From contig CAKJZJ010000017.1 in NCBI GenBank assembly GCA_918292005.1, positions 5,051 through 69,050 of the forward strand: DNA of 64,000 nt, in the 5' to 3' direction. Source of the DNA: Clostridiales bacterium (GTDB taxonomy: Bacteria > Bacillota > Clostridia > Christensenellales > UBA1242). Positions 14,513 to 42,339 of this stretch are shown here, one piece after another. The first letter of the stretch is position 1; every line of letters starts with the position of its first letter. The translations under genes were made by a program, and so were the position numbers. The notes below the pieces were generated by a model, which was not told the DNA's origin, made no database searches, and saw nothing but the letters and a program-made list of their open reading frames with translations.

Positions 14513-15040
14513 TTAATCTCTCCATTTTTCATCTATAAATTGTGTGAGTGACATTATAAAAGCATCTCTAGTTAAATCAATTCTGGATACTTTGTCGTGT
14601 GATATTAAACTAATACCACCACCTTTTGAGCGTATGTCAATTTTATCATATAGTTTATCCATCACATTACCTAGCGAATGGCTCATGATAGATGCTACAT
14701 ATTTTTCGGGTACAGGAAATCCTGCACTAGTACCATACGACCAATTATTTCCATCAGTTGTGGCTGCGACATTTACTATCAACCACATACCGAGACTATT
14801 AGTGATACCCGATTCTATAGCCATATAATAATCGGCTTCTATTCCATTATTTTGTGCATATTCGATAAGTGCCTTTACACGATTTTCAGCACCATGCTTT
14901 ATATCTAGATTGATAGGCTGTTCGGCCACTCCAGAGTCTACACTGATGCCAATTACTTCTACATCGTCATAGTATGTGGTTAGGGCCTGCCTAGCACCCT
15001 CAATTTTTGCTGGATTTTTTGAACCAATCAATACTTTCAT
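14513..15040 (-). CDS. yjjX: Inosine/xanthosine triphosphatase (YjjX/DUF84)
   Basis: GSKNPAKI, SGVAEQP, GAENR, AIESGI and KGGGISLISHDKVSR motifs. Confidence 0.85.
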   Translation of the reverse strand: MKVLIGSKNPAKIEGARQALTTYYDDVEVIGISVDSGVAEQPINLDIKHGAENRVKALIEYAQNNGIEADYYMAIESGITNSLGMWLIVNVAATTDGNNWSYGTSAGFPVPEKYVASIMSHSLGNVMDKLYDKIDIRSKGGGISLISHDKVSRIDLTRDAFIMSLTQFIDEKWRD

Positions 15041-15172
15041 ATTTTCTCCATTTTCATAGTTAGTTTAGCATTTTAGAGTGTACAAGTCAAATAAGCGATG
15101 TCAATATATTGGGTATTGACATCGCTAGTAAACTATTGTATAATCATTACAGAAAAAATGGGGGGGTATATT

Positions 15173-19262: not shown

Positions 19263-19379
19263 TTTTTCACCTAATATATTTATATTTCATGGCTTTTAAT
19301 TCATGCTTTATTTTATATAAATGATAAGAAAAAAATCATGGATTGTCAAATTTTTTGCTAGTGATAATAAAAAAGCAGG

Positions 19380-21214
19380 ATGGGTTATCAATTTTGAAAT
19401 TTGCAAAAAAGACTAAAAGTAAATTTAGTCTTCTTTTATATTTACAAATTTCCAGTGATAACCACCAGAGCTTTGAGATTTACCTTTACAACATACAGAT
19501 ATAGCACTACGGCTCACATTTATGGTTTGTGCCGCTTCCTTAATGCTATTATAAATAATGCCTGTATCTAAATTAACGACTTTTTTATAATGTGAAGATA
19601 TAGTTATTTGTCTTGCACACTTTGGACAGTTGCGACCTCTTACTCTACAACTAGGACTGGTTTGCCATTCGTAGCCACATTTCTTACATTTCCACCAGTA
19701 TTTTTTATTTGTTTGTGGTCTGATTTGATATGGTTTAATATCGCCATTTTTTTCATAATGCCATTCTTTTACAATTTTAGGAAACAATGTTTCTAAATCA
19801 TTATCGCCAGATAATACTTTTTGTCCAGCACAATATGGACAACCACATTTCATACTGCCTGCTCTTGATGAAACAGTTGCTTGCCACTCGTGTCCTTTTT
19901 TGCACTTCCACCATACTTTTTTATCACTACCTAGTGTAACATATTCAGGATTAACTTTGTTCCTATCATAATCCCATTCGTTTATTAAAATGTGGTTAGC
20001 GATACTATTTTCTTTTGATATTGTTAAAGCTTTATTTAGTATTTTCATATAATCATTTTCAATGTTTGGGGTTGAATTAAGGTTTGTATTAAAAGCTTTA
20101 TTAATAAAATCAAATGTTTGTTTAATAATTTCTTTAAGTTGTAAAATAGGGTTTTTATAAATATTTACATATACGAGATATGAATTTGTTTCATATTCAG
20201 GACAACCAATCTCACGAATACGCACTAGTTTTAAATTATTTTTAGCACATAGTTGATCTTTTTTAAAATCACGTTCTATATTTTTATGCCATTGCCTACC
20301 ATCATATTCTATACCTAAATTTAATTCTGGTATAAATATATCAATTTCCATTGTGTTTAACCAATCAAAATGTTTACTCTCTTCGATTTTAAAATATTTT
20401 GACAAGTAATATGATAATGTTTTTTCTCGAATAGAAGTTTTTAATTCATTTTTACAATATGGACATTCAGTTTTTAAACCAGCTCTTGATCCAATTGTTG
20501 CCAACCATTCATGACCTTTTTTACATTTCCACCAAATCTTTTTAGTCATTCCATGGCTAACCTCTTGTGGGGTTAATACATTTTTTTCATAATTCCACTC
20601 TTTTAACAATTCAGGATGTGTCGTTGCTAAGTCATTTACTCCCACAATGATTTTTTGACCTGAACATATTGGACAAACAATTCTACCTTCCGTCATGTGG
20701 CAAACTTTCGCTTGAAAAACATGTCTTTTATCTTTATCACAAATCCACCAAACTTTTTTGTTGCAATGTGGAAAAATTTCACTTGGTTTTTCTTTATTCA
20801 AATCATAATTCCATTTTCTTGCTATTTTTGGAAATAATGTTTGTAAATCATTTTTACCACTCACTAAGATTTTATTTGCACATGCCGGACAACCTTGTCC
20901 TTTATTTCTATTATTACAGATGCTTAACCATTCATAATTACAAATGTGGCATTTCCACCATGCTTTTTTATTACTACCAAGAGTTGTTTTGTCTGGAAAA
21001 ATACCAAGAGAATTATTTTTCTCCCAGTTCCATTCTTTCATTAACTCTTTGTTGTTTATTATATAATCTTTGATCATATGTGTATTATAACATAAAAATA
21101 ATAAAAAGTCTCGAATTGACCAAATTTTTGTGTTAAGAGAGAATTAAAAAACACCCTAACTTTTTCAAGTTAAAGTGTTAATTATTTGGCTAGTTTCAAA
21201 AGTCAGCAACTATA
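19380..21214. mobile_element. Cassette A: non-autonomous element with conserved ends, inserted in the degV terminator loop
   Basis: Both ends are shared with 40242-42339. Flanked by AAAAGCAGG (19371-19379) and CCTGCTTTT (21216-21224). Boundaries are uncertain by about 3 bp. Confidence 0.75.
19425..21077 (-). CDS. Zinc-ribbon repeat (DUF4379-like) protein with Vsr/DUF559-like nuclease and NUMOD1-like C-terminus
   Basis: Five WWxC...CPxC modules, central EIDIFIPELNLGIEYDGRQWH, and C-terminal YNSIKEAAQTINVSRSAISVCCKGKSQSSGGYHWKF. Confidence 0.8.
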   Translation of the reverse strand: MIKDYIINNKELMKEWNWEKNNSLGIFPDKTTLGSNKKAWWKCHICNYEWLSICNNRNKGQGCPACANKILVSGKNDLQTLFPKIARKWNYDLNKEKPSEIFPHCNKKVWWICDKDKRHVFQAKVCHMTEGRIVCPICSGQKIIVGVNDLATTHPELLKEWNYEKNVLTPQEVSHGMTKKIWWKCKKGHEWLATIGSRAGLKTECPYCKNELKTSIREKTLSYYLSKYFKIEESKHFDWLNTMEIDIFIPELNLGIEYDGRQWHKNIERDFKKDQLCAKNNLKLVRIREIGCPEYETNSYLVYVNIYKNPILQLKEIIKQTFDFINKAFNTNLNSTPNIENDYMKILNKALTISKENSIANHILINEWDYDRNKVNPEYVTLGSDKKVWWKCKKGHEWQATVSSRAGSMKCGCPYCAGQKVLSGDNDLETLFPKIVKEWHYEKNGDIKPYQIRPQTNKKYWWKCKKCGYEWQTSPSCRVRGRNCPKCARQITISSHYKKVVNLDTGIIYNSIKEAAQTINVSRSAISVCCKGKSQSSGGYHWKFVNIKED

Positions 21215-21222
21215 ACCTGCTT

Positions 21223-22059
21223 TTATTTATCAAGGAAAAGTACTCCTATACAATTCTCGCCACAATGGCTAGATATTGTGCCACCTGCTCTGGTAGGGTA
21301 GATGTGACCAAATCCACGATCTTTCAGTATCTCTGTGATGGCTGTTTCGGCTTCGGGCATGTCGGTCGAACTAGTGATAAATACATAGTCTAGTTCGGGA
21401 TCGGGGTGGGATACTAGCAAATCTTTGCAGTATTTGATGGCTACTTTGTTTATGTCGCCGGTGTATTTTTTACCTACACCCATTTTGCCATTAGCGACAA
21501 TGATTTGTGGTTTGATTCTTAGGATATTAGCACCCAACATTGCTAGAGCAGAACATCTGCCACCTTTGTATAGATAATTGAGTTTTTCTAGAACAAAACT
21601 TGCTTGGGTTTTTTCGGTCAGTTTGTTTATAGTGGCGACTATCTCTTCTGGAGACTTGCCGGCTTTTGCTAGCTCTGTGGCTTTGATGGCCTGTAGTGCA
21701 ATACCGGTAGATAGAGTTTTGCTATCTATTACATATACGTTACTCATCTCTTTAGCTATCATAACGGCATTATTGTATGCACTGCTCATTAGAGAACTGA
21801 GTGTAATGTGTATTATTGCATCGTAGTCCTTTTTTAAGTTTTCGAAATATTCCTTGTATTGCTCTGGACTGACGGCAGATGTCTTTGGTAATTTTTTGGT
21901 TTTAGATACGTACTCAAATATATCTTTTGATATACCAAATCTATCTTTTTCAATTTTGTCACCAAAAGTTATAGAGAATGGTGTGGTGGTTATGCCGAAT
22001 TTATCTAGTAATTCTTGTGGTAAATCGATTGTGCTTTCGGCAGATATTGCTATTTTCAT
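21223..22059 (-). CDS. DegV family fatty-acid-binding protein
   Basis: LPKTSAVS, SSLMSSAY, IDSKTLSTG, YLYKGGR and ISSHCG motifs. Confidence 0.9.
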   Translation of the reverse strand: MKIAISAESTIDLPQELLDKFGITTTPFSITFGDKIEKDRFGISKDIFEYVSKTKKLPKTSAVSPEQYKEYFENLKKDYDAIIHITLSSLMSSAYNNAVMIAKEMSNVYVIDSKTLSTGIALQAIKATELAKAGKSPEEIVATINKLTEKTQASFVLEKLNYLYKGGRCSALAMLGANILRIKPQIIVANGKMGVGKKYTGDINKVAIKYCKDLLVSHPDPELDYVFITSSTDMPEAETAITEILKDRGFGHIYPTRAGGTISSHCGENCIGVLFLDK

Positions 22060-22265: not shown

Positions 22266-23474
22266 ATGAAATTATTGGCTAGTAACAAATGGAAAAAAAG
22301 ATTGCCATTTGATAATGTAATATATAAAGATGTGCGTAGGCATAGTCTGCAATTAAGTGCTTTAGAGCGAGAAATTATGAACGTTCAGATAGATTTCTAT
22401 AGAACGCATTTTTCGCTTGAGCAGGTAATGGTTCATTTCCGAATTTTGAAAACTCCAGAAGAAAAAGAAACTTTTATAAAAGCAGTATTGAAAAGACTAG
22501 ACAATGTACTCTATATCCCTGTAGCATTGAATGGCTATTATAAAAAAATAATTAAAGAAGAATTCGCCGAATATAGAGCATTTTTTGAGATTGTGCTGAA
22601 TAGGTCCTTGGAACAAAAACACGACAATCTAATGTTGCCTATATACAAAAAAATATTTGGCGAATATTACAAGTGTATTGTAAAAGATGTAAATAAATAT
22701 TATAAACAAAAACCATTCATGGTATCTGATAGAGTATTGAAACCAGAAGCCCAGGAGAATACTGCTAGAGATATAATAAAGAGTATTCAAGATGATCTAT
22801 ATCTTGCTGCTATCTATGGCAGGTCGACGGTTAGACGTAGTGTGCCTATATCTGTAGTTGATGATTATGGTTATGGCGAGTGGACCAGTAAAAATGTATC
22901 ATTTGCTACCAATAGATTTTATCTATATGCCAATCATGATAAACTCACCAAATTGCAATTAGAATATATGATATATCTGAATGTTTATCCGGGCTATGGA
23001 CATTTCTATAATACTGTGCTAGATGAGCCACATAATATATGTTTCGATAATGGTGCTACTTATCTAATCAATGGCTGGGGAATGTATGCATCATGCTTTA
23101 GTAAAAATTCTCCTTATGCTACAAATAGACTGGTGGAAGCATGTACTATTGCACATCATCTGCTGGGTAAAAATCTAGAGAAAGCATTTGAAAATGTTTA
23201 CGTATATCTACTCAGCAAATATACCAAAGCACAAGCACAGGAGTATCTAGCATCTTATTCCCAATTCCCAGGAGATTATATGAGTTATGTTTTGGGGGCT
23301 CTCGCTACATTTGAGTGTATCAAAGTGGGTTTTGCCAATAATCCATTAGACTATCTGAATACACTAAAAGATATTAATTGTGGAGATTTTTTCGCATTGT
23401 ATTCTCCTAAAATGCAGAGAAAAATCGCCAAAACTACTATTACAGCCAAAGTTTCGCCTAAATTTTTACAATAA
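22266..23474 (+). CDS. DUF885-like protein with degenerate metallopeptidase motifs
   Basis: YLNVYPGYGH, INGWGMYA and PGDYMSYVLG align with DUF885 HExxPGHH, EGWALYAE and PGQAxxYxxG. Confidence 0.55.
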   Translation: MKLLASNKWKKRLPFDNVIYKDVRRHSLQLSALEREIMNVQIDFYRTHFSLEQVMVHFRILKTPEEKETFIKAVLKRLDNVLYIPVALNGYYKKIIKEEFAEYRAFFEIVLNRSLEQKHDNLMLPIYKKIFGEYYKCIVKDVNKYYKQKPFMVSDRVLKPEAQENTARDIIKSIQDDLYLAAIYGRSTVRRSVPISVVDDYGYGEWTSKNVSFATNRFYLYANHDKLTKLQLEYMIYLNVYPGYGHFYNTVLDEPHNICFDNGATYLINGWGMYASCFSKNSPYATNRLVEACTIAHHLLGKNLEKAFENVYVYLLSKYTKAQAQEYLASYSQFPGDYMSYVLGALATFECIKVGFANNPLDYLNTLKDINCGDFFALYSPKMQRKIAKTTITAKVSPKFLQ

Positions 23475-23502
23475 AAAAGAAGGACTAAGTCCTTCTTTTT
23501 TT
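23472..23502. terminator. Bidirectional intrinsic terminator
   Basis: AAAAAA GAAGGAC TAA GTCCTTC TTTTTT. Confidence 0.8.
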
Positions 23503-40241: not shown

Positions 40242-42339
40242 ATGGGCTATCAATTTTGAAACTTGCATAATATTGAAGGAATCTTATTCTAGAAGGTTCC
40301 TTTTTATAATTTTTTTAAAAAAATAACATTTTTATATTCGCTTATGTTATACTATTGTTGTAGTGTTATTGGAGTATAATTATGCCAAGTGGTAAAAAAA
40401 GAACAAATGAAGAGTTTTTGAATGAGTTTAATAGAAAAAATACAAATTCATCATCTATAAAAATATTAGGTCAATATTTGAATAATAACACAAATATTGC
40501 GTGTTTATGTTTGAAATGTGGAAACAAATGGAATCCCACTCCAAAAACATTATTAAGTAATCATGGTTGCCCTAAATGTGGGAATAATCAAAAATTTACA
40601 AAACTAGAATTTCTTAATCAATTTCATAAGAATAATTCGCATTCTGAAAATATAAATGTTATTGGTGAATATGGTGGTGTATCAAAAAAAATTAAATGTG
40701 AATGTAAAATATGTAAAAATATTTGGTATACTCGTGCTGGGGATTTGATTTATTCTAATTCAGGATGCCCAATTTGTTCTGGGAGTATTACACAAACACA
40801 TAATATTTTTTTAAAAAAAGTGGCATTTAAAAATATTCATTTTAATGATATCGAATTTAAAAGTCAATACACAGGTTCATTAAACAGAATAAAATGTCAA
40901 TGTAAAATTTGTGGACACGAATGGGAACCAATAGCAAGTAGTTTGTTGCAGGGTACAGGATGCCCTAAATGTGCACAAATCAAAACATCGCAAAAAGGAA
41001 AAGAAATTCTAAAAAAAGTCAGAGACAATAACCCGGCTGTAAAAAAAATGTCTCATAAAGATTTCATAGAGAAATTATATCTAAAAAATCCTTATGCCAA
41101 TAGTATAGAAATAATAAATGAATACAAAGGCGCAAATACTAGATTAAGATGTAAATGTAAGCGATGTAATAATATATGGGAGCCAATGGCTAGTGCATTA
41201 TTACAAGGACAATTTTGTCCTAGATGTCAACATTCATCAACGTCTTTTATGGAACAATTTATTGCACAAGGTTTAATTTATGTTTTAGGTAAAAAACATG
41301 TAATTCAAAGAGATAAAAAATTGATAAATAAAGAATTGGATATTTATATACCAAAATACCAATTAGCAATTGAACCCGGCTCATGGAAATGGCATAAAAA
41401 TATTCTACAAAAAGATATTGAAAAAATAAATTTATGCAAACAAAAAGGTGTTAAATTGATCATTCTCTATGATTCATGCCCTGAAGACAATATAAAAAAT
41501 GAAAACATTATATGTTTTAAAAATGATTTAGGTAGTGAAAAAAATCATAAGACATTAAAACAATTTTTAAAATCAATATTTACACAAAATAATATTATTG
41601 TTTCAGAGGATATGACTATGTGGAGTAATATTGAACAAAGAGCATATAAATTATCTCAAAGAATTACAAATCAAGAGTTTATTGAAAAATTTAAAATAAA
41701 TAATAATCACTATGCAAACATTATCATTAAATCTCAATATACTAGAGCAATAGATTCTATTGAATGTGAATGTAAAAATTGTGGAAATATTTGGAAAACA
41801 CCAGCATATGAGTTATTAAAAGGCAAGGGTTGTCCGAAATGTCAAATAAAACAGGTTGGATTAAAGAAGCAAAAAAGAAATATAATTAAGGAATGGCGAA
41901 GACAAAATCCTTATGGAAATAAATTACAATGTGAAAAAGAAACTGGAATAAGCAGAGTTACAATTTATAAATGGTGGAATGATTAAAAATAATTGGCATT
42001 TAAACGTGTGCTAGTCTTGATACAAGTCGTTGTCGCTTCGCTCCAACGAAGACAAGCACACAATAAATAAAATCGGTTAGAAGAAAGAGTGTGTGCTGGC
42101 GTTAGCATTAGCACAACACTCTTTCATTTTTCTCTTTGTTTTTTAGTGTAAACGAATATTCTTTGTTGTCAAGGTTAAAATGTATGTCTTGTAATTGTAA
42201 ATATTAAGATAACAACGACAACCTATGACAACGGCATAATATCCGTTTTGTTGGCTGGTTAAGAGAGAATAAAAAACACTCTAACTTTTTCAAGTTAAAG
42301 TGTTCATTATTTGGCTTGTTTCAAAAGTCAGTGACTATA
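40242..42339. mobile_element. Cassette B: same end family as cassette A, inserted in the PAP2-gene terminator loop
   Basis: Shared ends. Flanked by AAAAGTGCAT (40230-40239) and ATGCACTTTT (42339-42348). Boundaries are uncertain by about 3 bp. Confidence 0.75.
40382..41986 (+). CDS. Zinc-ribbon repeat protein with Vsr/DUF559-like nuclease and C-terminal HTH
   Basis: Five CxCxxC..W...GCPxC modules, central ELDIYIPKYQLAIEPGSWKWH, and C-terminal KETGISRVTIYKWW. Confidence 0.8.
   Translation: MPSGKKRTNEEFLNEFNRKNTNSSSIKILGQYLNNNTNIACLCLKCGNKWNPTPKTLLSNHGCPKCGNNQKFTKLEFLNQFHKNNSHSENINVIGEYGGVSKKIKCECKICKNIWYTRAGDLIYSNSGCPICSGSITQTHNIFLKKVAFKNIHFNDIEFKSQYTGSLNRIKCQCKICGHEWEPIASSLLQGTGCPKCAQIKTSQKGKEILKKVRDNNPAVKKMSHKDFIEKLYLKNPYANSIEIINEYKGANTRLRCKCKRCNNIWEPMASALLQGQFCPRCQHSSTSFMEQFIAQGLIYVLGKKHVIQRDKKLINKELDIYIPKYQLAIEPGSWKWHKNILQKDIEKINLCKQKGVKLIILYDSCPEDNIKNENIICFKNDLGSEKNHKTLKQFLKSIFTQNNIIVSEDMTMWSNIEQRAYKLSQRITNQEFIEKFKINNNHYANIIIKSQYTRAIDSIECECKNCGNIWKTPAYELLKGKGCPKCQIKQVGLKKQKRNIIKEWRRQNPYGNKLQCEKETGISRVTIYKWWND

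Follow-up and report, generated by a model that had tools for sequence, protein, structure and literature searches.

A cassette in the terminator of degV

We examined a 64,000-nt stretch of a Christensenellales genome (the window), in which an insert of 1.83 kb, which we call cassette A, lies next to degV. A sister copy, cassette B, lies elsewhere in the window. The features are:

19369..19379, no strand: left half of the split degV terminator, an A-tract and the stem arm AAAAAAGCAGG
19380..19381, no strand: left copy of the 2-bp direct repeat AT (crossover or target dinucleotide)
19382..19404, plus strand: left end of cassette A (P'-type half-site), GGGTTATCAATTTTGAAATTTGC
19405..19438, no strand: cassette-specific bidirectional terminator hairpin just inside the left end, AAAAAAGACTAAA-AGTAAA-TTTAGTCTTCTTTT
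19425..21077, minus strand: cargo ORF of 550 aa with DUF4379 and NUMOD-like domains
21150..21179, minus strand: conserved right-end hairpin, a terminator with 13 pairs and a T-tail that faces read-through from degV
21187..21211, plus strand: right end of cassette A (P-type half-site), TGGCTAGTTTCAAAAGTCAGCAACT, an inverted copy of the left-end core
21212..21213, no strand: right copy of the 2-bp direct repeat AT
21214..21224, no strand: right half of the split terminator, the loop remainder AA and the arm CCTGCTTTT
21223..22059, minus strand: degV (278 aa), whose terminator is split by cassette A
40242..42338, plus strand: cassette B, with AT repeats at 40242-43 and 42337-38

A perfect 9-nt inverted repeat, AAAAGCAGG (19371-19379) and CCTGCTTTT (21216-21224), brackets the insert just outside its conserved ends. 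Because the degV ORF occupies 21223-22059 on the minus strand, its TAA stop codon (21223-21225) falls inside the right arm. An earlier note on this DNA had described both the repeat and its overlap with the stop codon, and we see them as well. (On the minus strand, 19369..19379 reads as the 3' arm and U-tail of the degV terminator.)

The earlier note had also stated that there was no direct target duplication, but this is incorrect: one AT immediately precedes the left end (19380-81) and a second immediately follows the right end (21212-13). We fixed the register of the left AT by alignment to 24 other copies and to two empty alleles of sister cassettes. In every other copy, AT or AA is repeated in the same register, and the register of the ends and the dinucleotide is fixed across all copies. 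The base that precedes the left dinucleotide varies, so the repeat is limited to 2 bp.

Besides its cargo gene, cassette A retains only two half-sites and the right-end terminator. The conserved core of the subterminal inverted repeats, TTTGAAA(C/T)T(A/T)GC, lies in the left end, and each copy has its own distinct hairpin just inside this end. The cargo protein has a nuclease-like core among five DUF4379 treble-clef zinc fingers, and a NUMOD-like tail as in I-HmuI; it is a passenger rather than a recombinase. This is the cassette's one ORF, with DUF4379 and NUMOD-like domains only, and we found no large serine recombinase (LSR; Resolvase, Recombinase, and zinc ribbon domains) in the cassette. 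Both att-derived ends have been kept, and genes for integration and transfer are absent. A comparison of the window to Rfam gave no matches at the gathering score and only chance-level matches at E <= 5, including in the conserved right-end region.

Cassettes insert into the loops of intrinsic terminators

If the insert is removed, the flanks should recreate a terminator, as the earlier note proposed, and they do. With a single AT, the rebuilt degV site (AAAAAAGCAGG-AT-AACCTGCTTTT) has a 9-bp stem, a 4-nt loop, and a U6 tail on the degV strand. Its folding energy is -16 kcal/mol, versus -4.7 +/- 2.1 for shuffled sequences (z = -5.4), and 0 of 200 shuffles fold as well. The terminator that the note gave for comparison, at 23472-23502 of the window, is real and lies at 23473-23501.

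Cassette A has inserted within the loop of an intrinsic terminator, and insertions of this kind recur across the family. We aligned the flanks of 24 well-delimited copies from many species. All 24 pairs of flanks are palindromic and rebuild a single A-tract/stem/loop/stem/T-tract hairpin, with a 2-bp duplication of AA or AT. The rebuilt sites have a mean energy of -13.3 kcal/mol, versus -4.8 for mismatched pairs of left and right flanks (Mann-Whitney p = 4e-15). For example, cassette B splits the terminator AAAAGTGCAT/ATGCACTTTT after a PAP2 gene. Several target stems contain G-T pairs, which would be G-U wobbles on one strand only; this fits RNA terminators. Cassette B, copy C on contig C2, a small C9 copy, and about 20 copies from other species each have a different inverted repeat at their flanks. 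For annotation, this means that inverted repeats that bracket such inserts belong to the host and not to the element.

The earlier note had inferred that this targeting is structure-directed, but the enzyme may read either the shape of the hairpin or the A/T tracts. The A-tract and the T-tract lie about 8-10 nt on each side of the crossover, so recognition of sequence is as likely as recognition of hairpin shape.

Empty alleles

The earlier note had also suggested reading empty alleles, in which the two arms should be joined. For two sister cassettes, we found exact empty alleles in other strains. In both, the arms are joined as one hairpin and the dinucleotide is single. The first is an APH cassette upstream of rpsL (empty, ...AAAAACACCACTTTTAAAGGTGTTTTT...; filled, ...CACCGCTTTT[element]TTAAGGGTG...). 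The second is at an amidase/TM2 site (empty, GCACGCC-CAAC-GGCGTG; filled, GCACGCCC-AA-[element]-AA-CGGCGTG). In a third strain, the amidase/TM2 hairpin is occupied by another cassette, of the restriction-modification type.

A caveat is that we did not find the empty allele of degV. Across 40 genomes of the genus, no degV orthologue exceeds 69% identity, and the terminators of these orthologues could not be aligned; the best DegV in a scan of metagenomes was 61% identical; and an exact-protein look-up of DegV gave no match. Two look-ups for empty alleles returned contigs that were either filled or non-orthologous. A single dinucleotide in the empty site was seen for the two sister cassettes only, and in cassette A both junctions are AT. 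An empty degV site would be AAAAGCAGG-AT-AACCTGCTTTT as one hairpin, with the junction ATAATAAAAAAGCAGGATAACCTGCTTTTATTTATCAAGG and a single AT.

A large serine recombinase is linked to the same ends

An autonomous relative with cassette A's ends does exist, in the form of two full-length elements:

G008:C1:194822-207853: 13 kb, with cassette-type ends, AA repeats, and a terminator target
G373:C4:42597-48590: 6 kb, with cassette-type ends, AA repeats, and a terminator target

In both, a gene lying about 120 nt from the right end codes for a protein of 501 aa that has Resolvase, Recombinase, and Zn_ribbon_recom domains. These recombinases come from different genera and are 96% identical to each other. 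In the 13-kb element, sequences matching the cassettes' conserved non-coding modules flank the rep-like gene and the LSR gene. (The right-end modules of cassette B are conserved and of the longer type.)

The ends themselves resemble recombination sites. The left arm and the reverse-complemented right arm both carry TTTGAAACTAGC at positions 13-24 of pseudo-palindromic half-sites of about 25 bp, as seen in cassettes A and B, a 2,060-bp cassette, and both LSR elements. The half-sites of attP sites for LSRs are also pseudo-palindromic; they are 25 bp long, with a zinc-ribbon motif at bp 16-24 (PMC3783163).

We therefore propose, with a probability of roughly 0.7, that an LSR moves a family of integrative elements found in gut Christensenellales/Clostridia and that cassette A is a non-autonomous member of that family. 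The excised element would be circular, and its joined ends would make up a pseudo-palindromic attP-like site: two half-sites of about 25 bp, with TTTGAAACTAGC at positions 13-24 of each, flanking a central dinucleotide. With its usual 2-nt stagger, the LSR would exchange this site with an identical dinucleotide in an intrinsic terminator's loop. An exchange at this position would leave the insert flanked by 2-bp direct repeats and by both arms of the hairpin. Since there are terminators just inside both ends of the element, transcription of the flanking genes should still terminate.

Several observations count against an LSR. First, the window's genome has no gene with a Resolvase domain, and so no serine recombinase. 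Cassette A is therefore probably stranded. Second, the LSRs that are physically linked to these ends belong to one orthogroup in two elements, both with AA, and we found no LSR-bearing element with cassette A's AT core. In the LSR systems characterised so far, a palindromic core such as AT would abolish control of orientation. Third, the flanks of copies L170 and L208 and of the C7 copy do not match. Also, the presence of serine recombinases does not track the presence of cassettes across genomes (mostly MAGs). These ends do not follow LSRs that are 44-55% identical to the enzyme from the 13-kb element.

Other enzymes

Another explanation is that a DDE transposase encoded elsewhere binds the terminal inverted repeats and makes a 2-bp staggered cut in terminator loops, so that the cassettes would be MITE- or MIC-like derivatives of an IS30, IS630, IS1182, or IS4 type. 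The cassettes do end in inverted repeats, which are imperfect, and are flanked by a 2-bp duplication. Also, IS30-family elements favour palindromic targets, and a few of the genomes in the genus have transposases of the IS30 type. But none of the rve-type transposase genes that we examined in the genus has these ends, and a search for the rve family found none in the window's genome. The two full-length elements have an LSR gene but lack a DDE gene. Conservation of the repeats is strongest at subterminal positions (13-24), not at the tips. Finally, most lineages have AA as the core dinucleotide, whereas the window's cassettes belong to a lineage with AT, and a lineage-specific dinucleotide fits homology-dependent exchange better than it fits a shared transposase. 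Overall, we consider a DDE transposase to be unlikely. The earlier note's analogy to IS1182 and IS4 is not supported, as our search of the rve family found no DDE transposase with these ends and the full-length members carry an LSR by the right end: on our preferred reading, cassette A is not an insertion sequence of either type. (None of the small contigs of the assembly is an insertion sequence.)

The full-length elements also encode a rep-like protein of the HUH type (ORF2/G2P-like) next to the LSR. HUH enzymes cut in hairpin loops, and this protein might nick the single-stranded hairpin loops of terminators and insert a single-stranded circle there. Consistent with this, cassettes retain a very stable hairpin with a GCGAAGC tip. 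However, this hairpin module is wholly absent from cassette A. Furthermore, insertion of a single strand predicts no 2-bp duplication and does not need symmetric half-sites, and both are present here. This makes the HUH protein quite improbable as the responsible enzyme.

We also considered other types of mobile elements. None of the 41 genomes of the genus has PF01548 (the DEDD transposase of IS110/IS1111, which use bridge RNA or seekRNA). The only two tyrosine recombinases in the window's genome are Xer-like and an island integrase. We infer from the geometry that host Xer recombination is not involved: in the joined junction, the conserved repeats are about 22 nt apart, which is too far for a dif-like core. 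Transposition of a single strand as in IS200/IS605, a group II intron, and an integron attC were rejected from anatomy only, because of the 2-bp duplication and the symmetric ends and because there is no matching enzyme or motif.

Cargo and mobility of the cassettes

The cassettes with these ends carry restriction-modification systems, an APH-family phosphotransferase gene, a likely TrpRS, a tubulin-like gene, or small ORFs. In cassette B, the cargo is a different zinc-ribbon gene. The small cassettes lack a recombinase, have highly varied cargo, and are dispersed singly over many terminators.

In cassette A, the gene for the zinc-finger nuclease looks selfish. It could be a homing endonuclease that cuts empty terminators, with the cassette spreading through repair, and its zinc fingers, nuclease-like core, and NUMOD-like tail are typical of homing enzymes. 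But most cassettes with the same ends have unrelated cargo, and the cargo can be in either orientation. Homing would not explain the conserved ends or the insertion into unrelated terminators. Also, the 2,060-bp cassette suggests that cassettes with no nuclease gene move just as well. We give very little credence to homing.

The 2,060-bp cassette is 98.2-99.5% identical among six species, yet its flanks are unrelated. Such high identity (98-99.5%) at unrelated sites suggests that the cassette moved in trans and did not decay in place. We infer that the LSR of the full-length elements supplies this activity.

Comparison to known systems

Some insertion sequences target hairpins: IS1397 and ISKpn1 insert in REP loops, IS1630 (IS30 family) inserts at terminator-like repeats, and the earlier note named some IS1182- and IS4-family elements. 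Like the cassettes, they insert into or at palindromic intergenic sequences, with a short duplication or none. They encode DDE transposases, while the full-length elements here encode an LSR. (The targeting of REPs by insertion sequences is covered in PMC1525189.)

Our family resembles the integrative mobilisable elements of the Tn4451/Tn4453 type in Clostridia (LSR TnpX) and multi-targeting LSR elements, which also have the LSR gene at one end. The att sites of Tn4451 share identical 2-bp sequences, between which recombination occurs and which end up on both sides of the element (PMC5704250). Multi-targeting LSR elements, one of which has a TT core and A/T-enriched flanks, also use many different target sites (PMC10083194). 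Unlike Tn4451-type elements, the family here specifically targets the loops of intrinsic terminators, its core dinucleotide is AA or AT instead of GA, and most copies are small cassettes without a recombinase. Its LSR also lacks DUF4368, which is common in the TndX-like clade.

Pseudo-SCC elements of staphylococci depend on Ccr LSRs that are supplied in trans. Like these elements and like CIMEs (cis-mobilisable elements), which have lost their integration genes and kept attL and attR (PMC5704250), the cassettes have variable cargo between conserved ends. CIMEs and SCC pile up in tandem arrays at one fixed site, whereas our cassettes are dispersed singly. Integron cassettes are also small mobile units with no recombinase, very varied cargo, and a palindromic recombination site. 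Here, however, there is no attC with R and L boxes, no IntI, and no array; the targets are dispersed terminators, and exchange is at a 2-bp core, which is typical of serine recombinases.

A broader possibility, which we hold tentatively and at somewhat less than even odds, is that gut Christensenellales with small genomes run a dispersed, integron-like system of gene capture on a serine recombinase. A few LSR elements would supply the recombinase in trans to a large pool of cassettes that lack one (restriction-modification, APH-family, likely tRNA synthetase, tubulin-like, and selfish nucleases), and nearly any terminator would be a safe landing site. The A- and T-tracts of terminators would mimic the T-rich zinc-ribbon motif of the half-sites, TTTTGAAA, but shifted about 5 bp inwards, just as attB relates to attP in LSRs that have been characterised. 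With termination restored on each side by the cassette, insertion would be nearly neutral, and a hairpin could be reused by different cassettes.

If so, intrinsic terminators would be a very abundant and nearly cost-free class of landing sites. This would explain how defence and accessory genes are exchanged among genomes that measure about 1.2 Mb and are nearly devoid of insertion sequences. It would also be a natural case of cassettes mobilised by an LSR in trans. The LSR would be a multi-targeting enzyme whose target logic is legible from the sequence (an A-tract, a short palindrome centred on AA or AT, and a T-tract), which bears on understanding how attB is recognised. An example of a terminator of the target kind is AAAAAAGCCC-AATC-GGGCTTTTTT.

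The degV site

At the site of cassette A, an insert of ~1.83 kb, we considered the following features of the window.

19371-19379: left arm AAAAGCAGG, flank of cassette A
19380-81: AT direct repeat, left copy, directly before the conserved left end
21212-13: AT direct repeat, right copy, directly after the conserved right end
21216-21224: right arm CCTGCTTTT, flank of cassette A
21223-22059, minus strand: degV ORF
23473-23501: comparison terminator, a genuine A-tract/stem/TAA-loop/stem/T-tract hairpin

As the earlier note had seen, the arms are perfect inverted repeats, and the right one overlaps the degV stop codon. The degV ORF spans 21223-22059 on the minus strand. The hairpin that was cited for comparison is real. 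If the flanks are joined with a single AT, they give AAAAAAGCAGG-AT-AACCTGCTTTT, which folds on the degV strand into a 9-bp stem capped by a 4-nt loop and followed by a U6 tail. This rebuilt site has an energy of -16 kcal/mol, versus -4.7 ± 2.1 for shuffled sequences (0 of 200 shuffles were as good), so removing the insert does recreate a degV terminator. The earlier note saw no direct target duplication, but AT is present at both junctions. An empty degV allele was not found: the nearest DegV is 69% identical in the genus and 61% in metagenomes, and a look-up of the exact protein found no match.

Copies and their distribution

The window's genome (1.2 Mb in 19 contigs) contains these other copies or ends:

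Window 40242-42338: cassette B, same ends, AT repeats
Contig C2: copy C
G000:C9:80128-80857: small cassette of ~730 bp, AA repeats, degenerate ends, one small minus-strand ORF
G000:C7:84876-84960, minus strand: lone right end, preceded by large ORFs (650 aa and 826 aa)
G000:C14:538-568: lone left end, 540 bp from the contig edge

The terminator split by cassette B, AAAAGTGCAT/ATGCACTTTT, shares bases with the PAP2 stop codon, and the small cassette on C9 splits AAAAAAACAC.../...GTGTTTTTTT. The right end on C7 has neither a matching left end nor a T-tract flank; a rearrangement or a break in the assembly might explain this end and the lone left end on C14. (The 650-aa ORF on C7 has a helicase/ATPase-like tail, as judged by eye.) Identity between A and C is only 77% in the cargo and 92% at the ends: the window's copies are old.

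Of 24 further genomes searched in the genus, 11 have the right end, and scanning one genome per species for the exact pattern yielded another 45 loci. Their hosts are all uncultured Clostridia or Christensenellales and, where the source is stated, mostly from the human gut. All copies share a layout: left flank, dinucleotide, 5'-GG...TTTTGAAACTAGC, variable cargo, GCTAGTTTCAAA-N9-GACT-3', the same dinucleotide, right flank. Most lineages have AA as the dinucleotide; AT is found in the lineage to which A, B, C, and a widespread cassette of 2,060 bp belong. The repeat is limited to 2 bp, because the base preceding the left dinucleotide varies freely.

Insertion into terminators

Among 24 well-delimited copies, the flanks are unlike between copies, yet the two flanks of each copy are complementary. 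Every rebuilt site (24/24) is a single A-tract/stem/loop/stem/T-tract hairpin, with the duplicated AA or AT in or beside the loop. The mean energy of the rebuilt sites is -13.3 kcal/mol, versus -4.8 kcal/mol if left flanks are paired with right flanks from other copies (Mann-Whitney p = 4e-15). Matching flanks are lacking in a few copies: L170, L208, and the C7 copy. Several stems include G-T pairs, which are wobbles on one strand only, as one would expect for RNA terminators but not for sites recognised as DNA.

Empty alleles were available for two sister cassettes:

Site 1, upstream of rpsL: cassette with an APH-family (phosphotransferase) gene
Site 2, amidase/TM2 locus of one species: L334, L336, L337-L341

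For Site 1, contigs with a gene for the identical 181-aa neighbour have no cassette and read ...AAATAAAAACACCACTTTTAAAGGTGTTTTTTATTTTTTT... Where the cassette is present, the sequence is ...AAAAACACCGCTTTT[element]TTAAGGGTGTTTTTT... At Site 2, the empty strains have GCACGCC-CAAC-GGCGTGTTTTTT, and a filled strain has GCACGCCC-AA-[258-aa cassette]-AA-CGGCGTG. In a third strain, this hairpin instead holds another cassette, which carries a MunI-like restriction-modification system. This hairpin is reused: it has three states among strains (empty, the 258-aa-ORF cassette, or the MunI-like cassette). At both sites, the empty allele has the two arms together in a single hairpin, and insertion duplicates exactly two bases. 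Thus, at the level of the family, the earlier note's idea withstands its own refuting condition; this comes from two sister-cassette sites, not from site A. Overall, terminator-loop insertion by the cassette family is supported by the 24 rebuilt hairpins and the two empty alleles; the lack of a duplication and the analogy to IS1182 and IS4 elements are not.

The candidate recombinase

We found no IS110-type transposases in the whole genus, and neither rve-type transposases nor serine recombinases in the window's genome. This genome has two tyrosine recombinases, one of them Xer-like, with its gene next to lexA, and the other an island integrase. (The latter, a 464-aa tyrosine integrase at G000:C9:33971-35365, is beside a methyltransferase and other defence-like genes, and its locus is probably a separate genomic island.)

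We screened the flanks of the relatives' serine-recombinase genes for the cassette end motif and found one match, in the first of these elements:

G008:C1:194822-207853: 13-kb element, same left and right ends, AA repeats
G373:C4:42597-48590: 6-kb element from another genus, same ends, AA repeats

The 13-kb element splits the terminator AAAAAATCACCAT/ATGGTGATTTTTT. Alongside a type I restriction system and a Fic gene, it has a gene like Rep ORF2/G2P and one for a 501-aa large serine recombinase (LSR). The LSR has Resolvase, Recombinase, and zinc-ribbon domains, and its gene ends ~120 nt from the right end. Directly upstream of the LSR gene is the rep-like gene, a 293-aa ORF (L286:16644-17522) that matches Rep ORF2/G2P, a rolling-circle initiator type, which suggests that the excised circle is replicated or mobilised. 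The recombinase of the 6-kb element is 96% identical, and that element sits in an unlike terminator (AAAAAAGCCC/GGGCTTTTTT). The linkage of recombinase to ends comes from one orthogroup and two elements, both with AA cores. We found no element of the AT lineage that encodes an LSR. Because an AT core is a palindrome, control of orientation should be lost with it. Across the genomes, which are mostly MAGs, the presence of serine recombinases is not correlated with the presence of cassettes.

Similarly to the cassettes, with their 2-bp repeat at both junctions, Tn4451 recombines between 2-bp identical sequences of its att sites (PMC5704250). The attP of an LSR is a pseudo-palindrome with 25-bp half-sites and a zinc-ribbon motif at bp 16-24, which lies 5 bp further inwards in attB (PMC3783163). 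In both cassette arms, the conserved core is at positions 13-24. In the targets, the distance from the crossover is 6-12 nt to the start of the T-tract and 3-13 nt (mostly 8-10) to the end of the A-tract, which precedes the crossover. Given these distances, the terminator's tracts could mimic the arms' T-rich motif TTTTGAAA, a few bases closer in. The enzyme may read either the hairpin's shape, as in the structure-directed insertion that the earlier note proposed, or the A/T tracts. For one multi-targeting LSR, a TT core and A/T-enriched flanks have been described, with no mention of terminators (PMC10083194); the cassettes have AA or AT cores and A- and T-tracts in their targets.

On our best reading, cassette A is stranded: it derives from an LSR element that targets terminators, but has no recombinase itself. 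It resembles a cis-mobilisable element (CIME), in which integration genes are lost and attL and attR are kept (PMC5704250): cassette A has both ends and no recombinase. Cassette B and many relatives have a long conserved non-coding region that is modular, with a GCGAAGC-tip hairpin, a bidirectional terminator, and the inverted repeat TTGTCAAGG...CCTTGACAA. In the 13-kb element, the GCGAAGC hairpin and this repeat flank the rep-like and recombinase genes on either side; thus the small cassettes look like the element's mobility region minus those genes.

Window 42006-42061 (cassette B) and L286 ~14986-15058 (13-kb element): long conserved hairpin GTGTGCTTGTCT...AGACAAGCACAC, GCGAAGC tip on the minus strand

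This hairpin recurs in many cassettes and is upstream of the rep-like gene in the 13-kb element; it has no match in Rfam. GCGAAGC is a very stable DNA mini-hairpin motif. The hairpin could be an origin or transfer site. Separately, downstream of other LSRs (~45% identical) in G005 and G042 (L290, L291, L042) lies a conserved structured module, GGCTAAATTTATTCCATGGTGTACTTGACA...TGTCAAGTACCTTTCACGGCATAAA, which is also just upstream of the standard right end in one G024 cassette. This sharing points to modular exchange between lineages of LSR elements.

Cargo and predicted effects on flanking genes

A, B, and C carry zinc-finger nucleases. In cassette B this is a 534-aa protein with zinc fingers of the CapR-homology and DUF4379 kinds. 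Taking the ends as reference, it is encoded on the strand opposite to that of cassette A's cargo. Besides these nucleases, the very diverse cargo includes restriction-modification systems, a phosphotransferase gene of the APH family (Pfam APH), an ABC transporter, a three-gene unit that includes a tubulin/FtsZ-like protein, small ORFs, and, as judged by its sequence alone, a likely tryptophanyl-tRNA synthetase. The ORFs are in either orientation, and none of the listed cargo is a recombinase.

The 2,060-bp cassette encodes an 82-aa HTH-like ORF, a 189-aa ORF, and a 243-aa tubulin/FtsZ-like ORF. It is 98.2-99.5% identical in six species representatives (L167, L170, L182, L197, L198, and L201), with each copy in another terminator and no detectable similarity of the flanks. 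Near-identical copies with unrelated flanks indicate that this cassette spread recently, across species and into different terminators.

The conserved right-end hairpin is a minus-strand terminator (21179-21150; 13 pairs and a T-tail) and faces read-through from degV. Just inside the left end, each copy has its own version of a bidirectional terminator (19405-19438 in cassette A). Because there are terminators inside both ends, insertion may be nearly neutral for the flanking genes.
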